A DNA stretch of 64,000 nucleotides from Escherichia phage vB_EcoS_FFH_1: sequence record KJ190157; one strand, written 5' to 3'. Positions 10,423-14,193 of the stretch are shown one piece after another. The position numbers were made by a program, and so were the translations under genes. Within the stretch, counting starts at the first letter, position 1. The number at the start of each line of letters is the position of its first letter. Under the pieces are notes generated by a model that had not been told where the DNA came from, searched no databases, and saw only the letters and a program-made list of their open reading frames with translations.

Positions 10423-10456
10423 AGCCGGGTTGCTAGTCGACCTGGCTTTTATTTTA
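10423..10456 (+). terminator. putative intrinsic terminator after nrdD
   Basis: imperfect hairpin AGCCGGGTTGCTAGTCGACCTGGCT followed by TTTTATTTTATTT. Confidence 0.45.
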
Positions 10457-10457
10457 T

Positions 10458-10486
10458 TTGCTTTCAGCCAAAAATTTATATATAAT
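10458..10486 (+). promoter_or_regulatory. early promoter, PN25-like (TTGCTT-N17-TATAAT + ATAAATTTGAGGAGG)
   Basis: -35 10458-10463, -10 10481-10486; AT-rich upstream tract. Confidence 0.6.
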
Positions 10487-10515: not shown

Positions 10516-10896
10516 ATGACTTTAAAACCGTATATAGTGGAGTCTACGTGTGGCAGTTTCCACCTGGGTGTGGATGATATTGCTGAGGCTGTCTTTGCTG
10601 CCACAGGTGATTACTCTCATATAGGGGGTGCTGGGTACCCCACCGTTATTGGCGATTGGGTGGAAACAAATCTAGATGTGTCGCCTTATAACCCGTATTG
10701 CTTGTTTGATGAAGACAGAGATGAGGTAAAGTGTAATCTTGAATTTGTGTATAATAGAGTATTAAAAGTATACCAACGTAGTCCCGAGGGGTACGGAGAT
10801 ATTACTTGTAGTATTAAACAGTATCTTAAAGATGTATACTCTAGTTTTTCTGACGAAGGCCTAGAAACAGTTGCAGTGGAGTTTAATAATGACTAA
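10516..10896 (+). CDS. hypothetical protein (126 aa)
   Basis: ORF preceded by PN25-like early promoter and GAGGAGG SD. Confidence 0.5.
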   Translation: MTLKPYIVESTCGSFHLGVDDIAEAVFAATGDYSHIGGAGYPTVIGDWVETNLDVSPYNPYCLFDEDRDEVKCNLEFVYNRVLKVYQRSPEGYGDITCSIKQYLKDVYSSFSDEGLETVAVEFNND

Positions 10897-11095
10897 GAAT
10901 GTGAAACACCTTAAATATCGCTTAATCTATAACGGACGTATGGAAACAGAAGATCTGGCCCAATTAGCTATTAATTCTAATGAGGTTATGGTGCGTGCGC
11001 TAGCAATTGAAAAGTTGCGTGCTTCTTATGAAAATCGTGTTATGGAACTAGAGGAGAAACTGTATGGACTTCTTGAATCAGAGTCTAAAAAGTAA
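10871..11095 (+). CDS. hypothetical protein (74 aa)
   Basis: ORF in operon context, overlaps neighbours by a few codons. Confidence 0.35.
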   Translation: MQWSLIMTKNVKHLKYRLIYNGRMETEDLAQLAINSNEVMVRALAIEKLRASYENRVMELEEKLYGLLESESKK

Positions 11096-11258
11096 TCCAG
11101 AAAACATGCTTATTGAGCAATGGAACTTTGGTTATAATGCCGGTATAGCTACTTGTATTGCTAGATTGGATATGCTTATTAAGCAAGAAAAGGTACGCCC
11201 GGAGGAAGCAATTTTACTCCGAAATATTATCGAAGGATTTAAGCAAGGAATCGTATAG
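11064..11258 (+). CDS. hypothetical protein (64 aa)
   Basis: ORF in operon context. Confidence 0.35.
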   Translation: MDFLNQSLKSNPENMLIEQWNFGYNAGIATCIARLDMLIKQEKVRPEEAILLRNIIEGFKQGIV

Positions 11259-12082
11259 TGCGTAGACTAATTATTATTAGCGGTGCGGGTTTGAGTGTTG
11301 AAAGTGGTGTACGAGCTTTTCGTACTGATACTGCTAGTGGTAAAGCATTGTGGGATGATTATAATCTAGAAGAAGTATGTAATATTCATGCCTTTCGTGG
11401 TAATTTTTATCATAAAACCCATATGTTTTACAACAAGCGACGTGAAGAGTTAGAAACTGTTGAACCTAACCTTGCGCATCTTCGTATTGGTGAGTGGTAT
11501 AAGAAATATCCGGGTCAAGTAGTAAATTTGACTACTAACATTGATGACCTTATTGAGCGTGCTGGTGTTCCACATAATGATATTCTCCACATTCATGGAT
11601 ACTTAAAGGAGGTTGTTGTAGCTGATAGCTACAATAGTAGTAATAAACGAATTATTGATGTTGGGTATAACTCTATTGACCCAGAGGATTATAAATGGGT
11701 TAAACCTAACGTTATCTTCTTTGGTGAGCATGCTCCAGCATATACAGAAATGTACAATGTTTTTGATGGTATTACCAGTCAAGATATGATCATTGTGGTT
11801 GGTTGCTCTAACCAAGTAATTAACTTCTACTGGGAATTATTTCCTGTTCTTAATTTGACTGCTGCCAAATTAATGGTAGTTAACTACTACGATAGTGCCC
11901 TAGCGGCAGAACCAGGCTATCAAGGTATGACTCGTAGTGAGATGTACCAGTTGGAAGATCGTGGTATTCCTTACTGGAGTAAAGGTGCGGTAGATGCTTT
12001 TAGTGACCCTGATTTTATTGCTCGTGTGGAAGCCCATTTAGAGGGTAGACCTTACGTGCCAGGGAAACAAATATGTCCATAA
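11258..12082 (+). CDS. Sir2-family (sirtuin-like) NAD-dependent enzyme, lacking the Zn-ribbon cysteines
   Basis: Sirtuin motifs in order: GAGLSVESGVRAFR, TTNIDDL, catalytic LHIHGYL, PNVIFFGEHAP, VVGCSNQV; no CxxC...CxxC; GTG start overlapping upstream stop. Confidence 0.75.
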   Translation: MRRLIIISGAGLSVESGVRAFRTDTASGKALWDDYNLEEVCNIHAFRGNFYHKTHMFYNKRREELETVEPNLAHLRIGEWYKKYPGQVVNLTTNIDDLIERAGVPHNDILHIHGYLKEVVVADSYNSSNKRIIDVGYNSIDPEDYKWVKPNVIFFGEHAPAYTEMYNVFDGITSQDMIIVVGCSNQVINFYWELFPVLNLTAAKLMVVNYYDSALAAEPGYQGMTRSEMYQLEDRGIPYWSKGAVDAFSDPDFIARVEAHLEGRPYVPGKQICP

Positions 12083-12255
12083 TTAAATCTGTGTATACAC
12101 ACCCTGATGATATATTTGTATGGGCGGACGGTAGTTGGTGCTATCGCTGTGAACTGTGGGAAATGGACTATAAATCCGATGACTATGGTGTCATATATGT
12201 TGATACGGCTGAGTATGATACGTTCTTAGAAAGGAACAAAAATGGAAATAAGTAA
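12073..12255 (+). CDS. hypothetical protein (60 aa)
   Basis: short ORF overlapping both neighbours; no motif. Confidence 0.3.
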   Translation: MSIIKSVYTHPDDIFVWADGSWCYRCELWEMDYKSDDYGVIYVDTAEYDTFLERNKNGNK

Positions 12256-12748
12256 TACTCCAATTATTTTTCTAGACATTGATGGGGTGCTCAATTCGAG
12301 CATCTCCCACCATCATGCACCTGATGATGAAAAGATTTTCTTTGGAAGTGACTGGGTTTTCAAACCGCTTCTCAAGGCTTTTCAGGACTTTATTCGTCCT
12401 TCTCCGATAATGATTGTTGGGGTATCCTCATGGTTCTCTGTCAGGAATGAGATGGAGAACGTTCAGATTATGACCGGATTAGGTCTTATCGATCGTTTTC
12501 TTGGTACAACGGATTTTACTGGTGGTGGGCTATCTAGGGGTAATTCTGTTCTTCGCTTCGTTGAAAAGCATAAGCTCAAACATTGGTGTGTACTGGATGA
12601 CGCTGGTGCTATGATGTATCAGTATCCAACGGTTATAGTCAATGGTAGAACTGGAATAAATCTTCAAGATTTAAAAGCTGTTAGCTATATGCTAGAATTT
12701 AGCCCAGATCTTGAAATGTGTAAATCCTTACAACAATTTAAGGTGTAA
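12242..12748 (+). CDS. HAD-superfamily hydrolase-like protein (putative phosphatase/nucleotidase)
   Basis: HAD motif I FLDIDGVLN near N-terminus and motif IV-like WCVLDD; 168 aa. Confidence 0.55.
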   Translation: MEISNTPIIFLDIDGVLNSSISHHHAPDDEKIFFGSDWVFKPLLKAFQDFIRPSPIMIVGVSSWFSVRNEMENVQIMTGLGLIDRFLGTTDFTGGGLSRGNSVLRFVEKHKLKHWCVLDDAGAMMYQYPTVIVNGRTGINLQDLKAVSYMLEFSPDLEMCKSLQQFKV

Positions 12749-12750
12749 AT

Positions 12751-13179
12751 ATGTTCAATAATGTATTCTCTAAAGAAGCTAACCCAATTTTGGTTAACTT
12801 TTGGCGTACTCTCCCAGCTAGCCTGTATAATGAGGCTATTAACTCTTTGAAAATATGGTGTGAGAATAACGAAATCTCCTTTGCTTTTAAAGATGATATT
12901 GATGAGGCTCCCTGTATTGTTTTAATTGTGCAGGTAGAGGAGGGTCTTGAAGAGATTGTGGGCTGGAAAGAGTTAGACGAAATGGGCTTAGTTTTTGCGT
13001 TAAATTATAAACTGTTTATGCCTGCTAAGCATCGCCTTGTTGTTAACTATAAAACTAGTGAATCTCCTGGTTTTCAGGTTAATGAACGTTATGGTTGGTC
13101 TTACTCACCGGAAGAAGTAAATGAGGGGATTCAGAAACTTCGACGTTTCGGGTATATGATCCCGGGTTTAACTGCTTAA
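12751..13179 (+). CDS. hypothetical protein, paralog A of tandem pair
   Basis: 142 aa; shares conserved blocks (SF.F...PCI, MGL..ALN..LF.P, L.R.G..PGL) with the next ORF. Confidence 0.5.
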   Translation: MFNNVFSKEANPILVNFWRTLPASLYNEAINSLKIWCENNEISFAFKDDIDEAPCIVLIVQVEEGLEEIVGWKELDEMGLVFALNYKLFMPAKHRLVVNYKTSESPGFQVNERYGWSYSPEEVNEGIQKLRRFGYMIPGLTA

Positions 13180-13188
13180 GGAGGCAGG

Positions 13189-13581
13189 ATGGAACAAGTA
13201 TATTGGCGTCAGATTGACCCTAGTTTGGTGAAACGTGCGGAGAAGCTGCTACAACGTTGGTTGGGGGTAAGGCAAGCCTCCTTCTCTTTTCCGGAGCAGC
13301 AAACGGATGATCCATGCATTGGCGTTTTCCTGTCTGGATATGCCGGGGAATGGGAGATGGATTGGAATGAATTGTCCGCTATGGGTTTAATTGTTGCCCT
13401 AAATTTCTCTTTGTTCCATCCACGTGGTTTGGCCATATGTCGTGTGCCTGATGACGGTTGTTCGCCCCATCTTTTACAGGTGGAAGATGATATTTGGGAG
13501 TACACTCCAGATATTCTCAAAGAAGCTAAAGAACAATTAAACCGTGTTGGGATTTATGTTCCAGGCCTAAATGATGAATGA
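13189..13581 (+). CDS. hypothetical protein, paralog B of tandem pair
   Basis: 130 aa; AGGAGG SD; homologous to 12751..13179; followed by intrinsic terminator. Confidence 0.5.
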   Translation: MEQVYWRQIDPSLVKRAEKLLQRWLGVRQASFSFPEQQTDDPCIGVFLSGYAGEWEMDWNELSAMGLIVALNFSLFHPRGLAICRVPDDGCSPHLLQVEDDIWEYTPDILKEAKEQLNRVGIYVPGLNDE

Positions 13582-13605
13582 TTTTTACTAGCTGAACTCT
13601 GATTA

Positions 13606-13628
13606 CCGAGTCAAAATGACTCGGTTTT
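13606..13628 (+). terminator. intrinsic terminator after paralog B
   Basis: CCGAGTCA-AAA-TGACTCGG 8-bp stem followed by TTTT. Confidence 0.65.
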
Positions 13629-13672
13629 ATCCGTACTCAAGACCAATGATAGCACCATCCGGAAAATTTTAC

Positions 13673-13701
13673 TTGCAGGATGCCCAAAATCTTGATATAA
13701 T
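13673..13701 (+). promoter_or_regulatory. strong sigma70-type promoter TTGCAG-N17-TATAAT with TGn extended -10, no ORF downstream
   Basis: -35 13673-13678, TGA 13693-13695, -10 13696-13701. Confidence 0.5.
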
Positions 13702-14193
13702 ATTTATATTGAGAGACATTAGTAAAAATTGATTTTGCTAATTTTTCTTGTTTACAATCCGCGATACGGAACAGTTAGGCTGCCCCATTAAGGGTTGTTT
13801 TAACTATTACTAGTGTTTATATTGCATTAGTTAATCTTCAATTAAGTGATCTGTGTACCCTGAATTCGGAAAGGTAAATCCAAACCGTGCATATTTAGCT
13901 CGTTATATAGGCAGAGCTTTATATGGGGGTGCGAACGAAAAGAGCAGCGAATGGCGGCACGTACAGTAGTCACCTACCAATAGGATAGTGAGGACAAATA
14001 GAATCGGCTTAGCGGCCAATGACCTAGGTTCTATTCTGTATATGAGCGAAGAGAGCACAGCACTGAGATATGATAACTTATTCATATTGTTTGATGATAA
14101 TTGATGTTTACGTAAATAGTAGTAATAGTTGTTCTATTCTTTCTGAATAGTCCTAAAGAAAAGATTTCTATTAATCAACACAGGAGTATTGTT

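Follow-up and report, generated by a model that had tools for sequence, protein, structure and literature searches.

A predicted cap-less HAD phosphatase in the sirtuin operon of T5-like phages: genomic context and possible substrates

Escherichia phage vB_EcoS_FFH_1 (sequence record KJ190157) carries, shortly behind a sirtuin-like gene, a small ORF that a preliminary description read as a HAD-like phosphatase. Its proximity to an NAD+-consuming enzyme raises the question of which phosphate such a protein might remove, and whether the two genes are functionally coupled or simply inherited side by side. Here we address this question for a stretch of 64,000 nucleotides of the phage genome (the window), using homologous loci of other phages and bacteria.

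A HAD-family gene in an early sirtuin operon

The ORF encodes 168 amino acids, starts with ATG and is preceded by AGGA six nucleotides 5' of the start, as read directly from the sequence. The profile search proposed in the preliminary description assigned its product to Pfam family PF18143 (HAD_SAK_2), with an E value of 4e-20 and a score of 73 bits compared to a curated gathering threshold of 27.5 bits. The match covers profile positions 1-138 of 139 and hence the whole domain. PF18143 was the sole Pfam match to the protein at E ≤ 0.1, and its homologues likewise match this family.

The suggestion that FLDIDGVLN and a DD motif fit a small HAD hydrolase is borne out by the alignment and the structural model, in which motifs I, II, III and IV of the superfamily could all be located (Table 1). 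In motif I, D12 and D14 follow strand 8-11 of the model and are invariant in 13 sequences with identities down to 37%; they are the predicted nucleophile and the predicted general acid/base, respectively. The invariant S62 and S63 of motif II lie at the end of strand 2 (after strand 57-60) and are followed by an invariant W64 and F65. Residues G95, G96, R99 and G100 are also invariant in the alignment down to 37% identity. R99 is a motif III candidate by position only, located in the model at the N-terminus of helix 97-110, before strand 115-119. Motif IV reads V117-L-D119-D120-A-G122, with its invariant DD at the end of strand 4, where D119/D120 would coordinate Mg2+ by analogy with other HAD enzymes. 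Judged from alignment and model, the putative catalytic set of D12, D14, S62/S63, R99 and D119/D120 is intact. Because these residues are conserved in the homologues, the lack of conservation that the preliminary description had named as evidence against a HAD enzyme was not observed.

The AlphaFold2 model, which is confident (pLDDT 94.5), has a short helix and a beta-hairpin flap after strand 1, in agreement with the Rossmannoid alpha/beta core, squiggle and flap after strand 1 of the HAD superfamily, and contains no C1 or C2 cap insert. The ORF product is a genuine HAD-superfamily and PF18143 protein, and conservation and model together indicate that the ORF is a real gene for a small HAD-family phosphatase, which is probably active. 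Searching the PDB sequences with a profile of the alignment gave no significant relative, Foldseek returned only weak, generic HAD matches from the PDB (E ≥ 0.015), and a fold search of BFVD matched only uncharacterised phage HADs.

The upstream neighbour was correctly recognized as Sir2-like in the preliminary description. Its GAGxS motif, N94, D96 and H113 are invariant in an eight-sequence alignment. The protein lacks the Zn-binding cysteine tetrad, and among solved structures E. coli CobB (1s5p, E 2e-24) comes closest to it. The HAD gene does lie downstream of this sirtuin gene, but not immediately downstream as had been stated. A conserved 60-aa ORF, which accompanies Sir2, intervenes and shares 10 nt with the end of Sir2 and 14 nt with the beginning of HAD.

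In total, eight tightly packed ORFs share this strand: three small ORFs of unknown function, Sir2, the 60-aa ORF, HAD, and two DUF7415 genes that are tandem paralogues. Because the ORFs overlap or abut, are framed by a promoter-like site and a terminator-like hairpin, and match the annotation of T5, the sequence indicates that they form one early transcription unit in which HAD is co-transcribed with the sirtuin. T5 has an annotated early promoter upstream of T5.100, homologous to the promoter-like site, and an annotated rho-independent terminator at the position homologous to the hairpin, which we read by eye and which a simple terminator scan missed. The operon sits between nucleotide-reductase genes and the gene for the replication-origin-binding protein.

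Table 1. Features of the sirtuin operon and of the HAD gene (positions in the window)
Feature	Position	Strand	Basis
nrdD terminator	10423-10447		terminator scan
Early-promoter-like site TTGCTT, 17 nt spacer, TATAAT; proposed operon start	10458..10486	+	direct sequence reading
First operon ORF, 126 aa, T5.100 homologue	10516..10896	+	phrog_11748, E 4e-74
Small ORF, 74 aa, T5.101-like	10871..11095	+	
Small ORF, 64 aa	11064..11258	+	phrog_5827
CobB-like sirtuin, 274 aa, T5.102 homologue	11258..12082	+	PF02146, E 4e-25; phrog_2162, E 8e-121
60-aa ORF with 'DGSWCYR' motif	12073..12255	+	phrog_5116
Cap-less HAD phosphatase (predicted), T5.105 orthologue	12242..12748	+	Pfam PF18143 HAD_SAK_2
HAD motif I, FLDIDGVLN, residues 10-18	12269..12295	+	invariant in alignment
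HAD motif II region, VGVSSWF	12416..12436	+	alignment and model
TGGGLSRG loop with motif III (K/R) candidate R99	12515..12541	+	alignment and model secondary structure
HAD motif IV, VLDDAG, D119/D120	12590..12607	+	alignment and model
DUF7415 protein A, 142 aa, T5.106 homologue	12751..13179	+	PF24187, E 2e-33; phrog_2502
DUF7415 protein B, 130 aa, T5.107 homologue	13189..13581	+	PF24187, E 2e-31; phrog_2502
Intrinsic-terminator-like hairpin ACCGAGTC / AAAAT loop / GACTCGGT, then TTTTAT; proposed operon end	13605..13630	+	sequence reading

Distribution of the sirtuin-HAD pair

At the DNA level, the region is 93-95% identical to many Tequintavirus genomes (e.g., phiLLS, VSe12 and JLBYU40), and the HAD protein is 98.8% identical to T5 protein AAX12034/YP_006933 (T5.105, 'Aeh1ORF302c-like'). 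T5 has the same operon, T5.100-T5.107, between nrdD and the origin-binding protein, with the same neighbours. It differs in what separates Sir2 from HAD, namely a pair of small ORFs (T5.103 and T5.104) in T5 and a single one in the window. HADs of at least 60% identity were found in ~439 phage records, essentially all of them from T5-like phages of Salmonella, Escherichia and Shigella.

RefSeq T5 and many of its relatives mislabel this HAD gene as 'Sir2'. We rejected the corresponding reading of the ORF as a Sir2 fragment and traced the label to phrog_18062, a family that appears to have been built on deletion chimeras such as the 'defective Sir2' of DT57C. The present analysis thereby puts right a widely propagated mis-annotation.

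The preliminary description had proposed co-occurrence in related phages as a check on the association. This was found for Markadamsvirinae, for Pectobacterium phage My1 and for divergent T5-like phages. HAD was present in all 27 Sir2-anchored Markadamsvirinae/My1 loci, and Sir2 lay within ~1.2 kb of HAD in 13 of 14 HAD-anchored T5-like loci from IMG/VR. My1, which belongs to a different subfamily and has a HAD of 43% identity, retains the order Sir2-small ORF-HAD. In three divergent T5-like metagenomic contigs (HAD identity 39-42%) the order is inverted to HAD, small ORF, Sir2, and the DUF7415 genes are absent. Furthermore, two independent natural deletions affect both genes together: a chimera in DT57C joins Sir2 residues 172-212 to HAD residues 133-168, and in SHSML-45 Sir2 has been lost along with HAD residues 1-63.

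Elsewhere the expected co-occurrence failed. HAD is missing from Klebsiella Sugarlandvirus, which retains Sir2, the small ORF and the DUF7415 pair. The sirtuin clade of the window also occurs in rV5-like and Mydovirus phages (58-61% identity), where HAD is absent, and our own HMMs, applied to 52 viral HAD_SAK_2 loci from outside Demerecviridae, detected no Sir2 of this clade within 8 kb at any of them. Both genes are missing from Vibrio T5-like phages. Distant HAD homologues in T4-like Aeromonas and Proteus phages are located beside td, frd, nrdA.1 and denA, or beside dUTPase/primase genes, and have no Sir2 nearby. Proteus phage gp023, just 5' of the HAD gene, was considered as a hidden Sir2 and rejected, as it has no Pfam match.

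Our results show that the Sir2-HAD association is real within Demerecviridae and is restricted to this lineage. All Demerecviridae pairs occupy one syntenic slot and therefore much of the co-occurrence could be inheritance; the pairing may reflect a single ancestral juxtaposition. Conversely, the pair has outlasted an inversion and a sequence divergence of 60%, which speaks for a degree of selective linkage.

Relatives in NAD+ and ADP-ribose contexts

The closest HAD relatives outside Demerecviridae share 37-43% identity, and their own reciprocal best matches are the T5-like HADs. They are encoded by myophages of ~130-150 kb, four of which are metagenomic contigs and the fifth Serratia phage ChuuTotoro. 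At each of the five loci examined (P0015, P0016, P0018, P0024 and P0029), HAD lies on the same strand directly upstream of a gene pair consisting of a Prs-like and a NAPRTase-family gene, with zero to two small ORFs before the Prs-like gene; in ChuuTotoro, the stop of HAD overlaps with the start of the Prs-like gene. Neither the gene upstream of HAD in these ChuuTotoro-like operons nor the small intervening ORFs matched a significant family, and they gave only a weak wHTH hint.

A Prs-like gene paired with a NAPRTase-family gene is the composition of NARP1 (Adps and Namat) as defined by Osterman et al. (bioRxiv 2026), which rebuilds NAD+ from ADP-ribose (ADPR) and nicotinamide. These authors showed experimentally that an additional phosphatase with a Macro domain, Adpp, is encoded in some NARP1 operons and converts ADPR-1''-phosphate (ADPR-1''-P), the product of RES-type NAD+ cleavage, to ADPR. 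Their text mentions no HAD. The outgroup HADs hold an equivalent place in Adps-Namat operons, where, like Adpp of NARP1-AP with its yeast counterpart Poa1p, each is a small phosphatase gene accessory to the NAD+/ADPR module of a phage. Yet, Adpp has a Macro fold whereas the fold of the window protein is that of a HAD, and Adpp is encoded between Adps and Namat whereas HAD precedes Adps. Any relationship between the two phosphatases would be analogy, not homology. The window itself contains neither Adps nor Namat, and only the closest outgroup homologues are found at a NARP1 location.

The combination is rare, as the HAD-bearing clade represents only 3 of the 1489 phage records with an Adps-like gene. 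Mydovirus-type phages have Sir2, an RNA-repair cassette and a divergent NARP1 pair together in a segment of ~8 kb. HAD is obligatory for neither partner, because Sugarlandvirus (with Sir2) and Mydovirus (with Sir2 and NARP1) do without it.

Among bacteria, our own HMMs found Sir2 nearby in 2 of 49 HAD_SAK_2 loci. One of the two, in a Prevotellaceae MAG, encodes on one strand MoxR, vWA, HAD_SAK_2, Metallophos, a Zn ribbon, SIR2 and an ADP-ribosylglycohydrolase. The HAD thus has relatives that are linked to NAD+/ADP-ribose enzymes in no fewer than three different genomic settings. The NAD+/ADP-ribose idea of the preliminary description gains independent support from the NARP1 operons of its nearest relatives and from the Prevotellaceae operon.

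Most members of the HAD_SAK_2 family show no such link. When 150 phage and 141 bacterial neighbour proteins were assigned to Pfam families, the result was heterogeneous, with no dominant partner. This census considers the best 25 of 86 phage and 131 bacterial families, so that rare SIR2 or ligase matches could be hidden. Among the families listed, Metallophos was the most frequent neighbour in both samples. Fusions among 150 profile matches were mostly tandem HAD_SAK_2 domains, with one fusion to Metallophos and one to DUF2442; none of these 150 matches was fused to a ligase, kinase or NAD enzyme.

Possible substrates and biological role

Because its motifs are intact and the chemistry of HAD enzymes is well established, the protein should be a Mg2+-dependent phosphomonoesterase. 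In this reaction, D12 would form the phospho-aspartyl intermediate and D14 would serve as general acid/base, while D119/D120 would hold the metal. As for the substrate, we tentatively favour a ribose-linked phosphate arising from NAD+-dependent ADP-ribosyl transfer, most likely a small ADPR derivative such as ADPR-1''-P, by analogy with Adpp and as a choice that may well prove wrong. ADPR-1''-P, possibly after ring-opening of ADPR-1'',2''-cyclic phosphate, would then be converted by the HAD to plain ADP-ribose. The neighbouring sirtuin or a host NAD+-cleaving enzyme would supply the substrate in T5-like phages. In ChuuTotoro-like myophages, the HAD encoded before Adps-Namat would feed ADPR into NAD+ reconstitution. 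The HAD would thus be a non-homologous counterpart of the Macro-domain phosphatase of NARP1-AP.

We favour ADPR-1''-P for three reasons. First, the T5 annotation (positions 1-85,000) lists neither an RNA ligase nor a polynucleotide kinase, and the window has no match to an Rnl1-type RNA ligase, to cREC or to an AAA_33-type (polynucleotide-kinase-like) kinase. Second, the sister clade is transcribed with Adps-Namat and not with the nearby ligase cassette of the ChuuTotoro-like phages, an RNA-repair cassette that has its own Metallophos. Third, some NARP1 operons are known from experiment to include an accessory ADPR-1''-P phosphatase.

Several observations count against this ADPR model. T5-like phages have no Adps or Namat, and therefore ADPR production alone would not restore NAD+. 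In addition, HAD is absent from Sugarlandvirus and Mydovirus, and the HAD-NARP1 clade is as rare as described above. The CobB-like sirtuin might also be a plain deacylase, in which case its products carry no extra phosphate.

The main rival is RNA-end healing, a possible reading that we hold to be rather unlikely. The Sir2-HAD association was already known as a published prediction with this interpretation. [quoted passage not shown] Accordingly, the sirtuin would strip the 2'-phosphate from RNA cut by a metal-independent nuclease, and the HAD would hydrolyse a terminal 2'/3'-phosphate of the RNA or clean up ADPR>P, after which a ligase would reseal the tRNA. In the literature we found no experimental work on T5.102, T5.105, a phage sirtuin or any PF18143 protein.

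The name of the Pfam family, after RNA-repair 'Swiss Army Knife' proteins, agrees with RNA-end healing, and a cap-less HAD suits a polymer end. T5 has ~25 tRNA genes, and tRNA-cleaving defences have been reported in the literature. The same sirtuin clade is embedded in a cassette of Metallophos, Rnl1-type RNA ligase, cREC and AAA_33 kinase in Vequintavirinae (rV5-like phages), and in Mydovirus phages. The prominence of Metallophos among HAD_SAK_2 neighbours, and its one fusion, would fit a two-step route of cyclic phosphodiesterase and monoesterase. However, the lack of a matching ligase, cREC or kinase in the window, and of an annotated ligase or kinase in T5 (positions 1-85,000), speaks against RNA-end healing, as does the grouping of the ChuuTotoro-like HADs with Adps-Namat. 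RNA ligase was not among the best 25 families of the neighbour census (of 86 and 131, respectively). The window HAD is stand-alone, with no linked or fused RNA ligase or polynucleotide kinase of the kind that defines RNA-repair systems sensu Burroughs and Aravind.

T4 Pnkp is the classic example of a HAD that takes 3'-phosphates off nucleic-acid ends. Its phosphatase domain resembles the window protein in belonging to the HAD superfamily, in the DxDG(T/V) nucleophile motif, and in being phage-encoded and cap-poor. In contrast to Pnkp, the window protein is a single 168-aa domain with no fused P-loop 5'-kinase, and no partner RNA ligase is annotated in the T5 region analysed. The fold match (2ia5) is weak, with a Foldseek E of ~0.1 and a TM of ~0.4, and the PDB-wide profile search gave no sequence match. 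RNA-end healing and the ADPR model share the same ribose-phosphate chemistry, and a HAD acting on ADPR>P, which is part of the RNA-repair model, merges with the explanation that we favour.

An alternative explanation, which we consider unlikely, is that the HAD is a nucleotide-pool phosphatase, i.e., a 5'- or 3'-nucleotidase for dNMP, NMP or NMN, and that its Sir2 neighbour is inherited synteny, functionally uncoupled. The operon is indeed located between nrdA/nrdB/nrdD/thy/frd and replication genes, and the T4-like Aeromonas and Proteus homologues keep similar company without Sir2. The heterogeneous neighbours of HAD_SAK_2 elsewhere, and the single genomic slot shared by every Demerecviridae case, would also be in line with uncoupled inheritance. 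Yet, T5 already encodes a deoxynucleoside-5'-monophosphatase, dmp (T5.001), and at the level of Pfam families the protein, with PF18143 as its only match at E ≤ 0.1, does not fall among the nucleotidase HADs of the NT5C or T5 dmp type. Moreover, the adjacency to Sir2 outlasts order inversion and deep sequence divergence, and the nearest outgroup clade resides in NARP1 operons. Finally, a protein phosphatase with a phage or host phosphoprotein as its substrate, like the cap-less HADs of the MDP-1 or CTD-phosphatase-like type, is very improbable, since that reading depends solely on unselective fold similarity. The best structural match, magnesium-dependent phosphatase 1 (MDP-1, PDB 1u7o), is a eukaryotic enzyme of just 15% identity without a genomic or functional tie to NAD+ or phage biology. 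It is a sugar-phosphate phosphatase, which counts in favour of the ADPR model.

The linkage of the HAD family to NARP1 and the ADPR-phosphate hypothesis that results from it are new here, and are the parts worth experiment. NAD+ is central to the conflict of phages with bacteria, and T5-like phages need it for their NAD-dependent DNA ligase. Phage Bas30 of the BASEL collection, whether or not it is itself T5-like, carries the NARP3 NAD+ pathway. In its general form, the ADPR model states that T5.105-type HADs are phosphatases of ADPR-1''-P (or of products derived from ADPR-cyclic phosphate), and hence a second, non-homologous solution to the reaction of the Macro-domain proteins Adpp and Poa1p; this generalization we regard as distinctly doubtful. 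If true, these HADs would be plugged either beside a Zn-less CobB-like sirtuin, as in T5-like phages, or before Adps-Namat, as in ChuuTotoro-like phages. The latter would amount to a NARP1-AP with a HAD as its phosphatase, able to act against RES-type NAD+ phosphorylase defences, and the phage sirtuin would generate a phosphorylated ADPR product. A HAD that processes phosphorylated ADP-ribose would define what the phage sirtuin makes, and would add a new enzyme class to the toolkit of NAD+ reconstitution and anti-defence. The sirtuin and the phosphatase are conserved in hundreds of T5-like phages that are candidates for therapy.

The sirtuin gene and its loss together with the HAD gene

The sirtuin encoded at 11258-12082 is CobB-like (match to 1s5p, E 2e-24). 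It retains GAGxS, N94, D96 and H113, and the four Zn-binding cysteines are absent. T5-like phages carry at least two alleles of this gene, which share only 51–52% identity with each other while the neighbouring HAD is ~90% identical. This comparison of sequences indicates that the sirtuin gene of T5-like phages has been swapped by mosaic replacement.

In DT57C and SHSML-45, two independent deletions of natural origin took out the sirtuin together with the catalytic N-terminal part of the HAD protein (see the table). Neither gene is therefore needed to form plaques on laboratory hosts.

The label 'Sir2 (NAD-dependent deacetylase)' is attached to the HAD gene in RefSeq T5.105 and in many RefSeq- or pharokka-annotated T5-like records. 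Its source is phrog_18062, which matches HAD over residues 77-168 (E 6e-58) and Sir2 weakly over residues 169-216. This family appears to have been built on deletion chimeras, for instance the 'defective Sir2' of DT57C.

Coordinates of the features discussed (L-numbers denote the genomic loci compared)
Feature	Locus	Coordinates	Remarks
HAD gene carrying the Sir2 label	window; T5 NC_005859	12242-12748; 57588-58094 (= L078 7589-8095)	
60-aa ORF, phrog_5116	window	12073-12255	conserved 'DGSWCYR' motif; overlaps Sir2 stop and HAD start
DUF7415 tandem paralogues (T5.106, T5.107)	window	12751-13179, 13189-13581	last genes of operon
Non-coding gap, ~600 nt	window	13582-14193	between operon terminator and origin-binding-protein gene
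Near-consensus promoter, TTGCAG...TATAAT	window	~13673-13702	inside the gap
Deletion in DT57C	L003	3354-3626	Sir2(172-212)::HAD(133-168) fusion
SHSML-45-like deletion	L024	7917-8315	Sir2, small ORF and HAD residues 1-63 gone
bpMoxR AAA+, vWA, HAD_SAK_2, Metallophos, Zn-ribbon protein, SIR2, ADP-ribosylglycohydrolase	L157	1891-8611	same strand; Prevotellaceae MAG CADCBZ010000005.1
HAD_SAK_2-Adps-Namat operons	L081; L082; L144; L145; L146	8001-11217; 8001-11519; 472-3978; 6001-9569; 6001-9708	
Sir2, RNA-repair and Adps-Namat clusters	L111, L113-L115, L133, L139		IMG/VR Mydovirus-like contigs

Small ORFs and the downstream gap

The 60-aa ORF stays linked to Sir2 rather than to HAD, as the ORF is kept in Sugarlandvirus and is placed after Sir2 in locus L084. 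It is missing from some T5-like phages (L097, L099, L104, L105), where Sir2 directly abuts HAD. Sugarlandvirus also has the DUF7415 genes alongside Sir2, with HAD missing. The DUF7415 genes are themselves missing from T5-like contigs with reversed gene order, and Aeromonas phage AsFcp_2 has a DUF7415-like ORF (L007 6260-6526) at 1.8 kb from a HAD pseudogene. The gap downstream of the operon is interrupted by an HNH homing endonuclease in related phages such as JLBYU40.

HAD_SAK_2 relatives and NAD+ metabolism

The commonest neighbour of HAD_SAK_2 genes was a calcineurin-like metallophosphoesterase, found in 3 of 150 phage and 4 of 141 bacterial cases in our neighbour-protein censuses. The two domains are fused in one 417-aa homologue (P0039), and longer family members commonly have two or three tandem HAD_SAK_2 copies. 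The Prevotellaceae array looks like a MoxR-vWA conflict system joined to an NAD+/ADPR effector module, which includes a HAD_SAK_2 relative of the HAD studied here.

HAD_SAK_2 is the first gene of a NARP1-type operon in ChuuTotoro-like myophages (~130–150 kb), followed by Adps-like and Namat-like genes. This arrangement was not found in the NARP1 literature examined. Directly 5' of HAD_SAK_2 lies an ORF of ~125–140 aa, with sub-threshold winged-helix matches in two of the three copies scanned and none in the third. Of the five loci, L082 and L146 have a divergent Rnl1/AAA_33 kinase/Metallophos/DNA-ligase cassette, lacking Sir2 and cREC, at a distance of ~4 kb; ChuuTotoro (L081) and L145 have only the DNA ligase at that position, and L144 is too short to score.

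Within ~8 kb, Mydovirus-like contigs from IMG/VR combine a member of this Sir2 clade with a divergently transcribed Adps-Namat pair and with an RNA-repair cassette made up of Metallophos, Rnl1 and AAA_33 kinase; cREC is also present in five of the six loci. This clustering suggests that, in Mydovirus-like phages, NAD+ consumption by the sirtuin is physically linked to NAD+ reconstitution.
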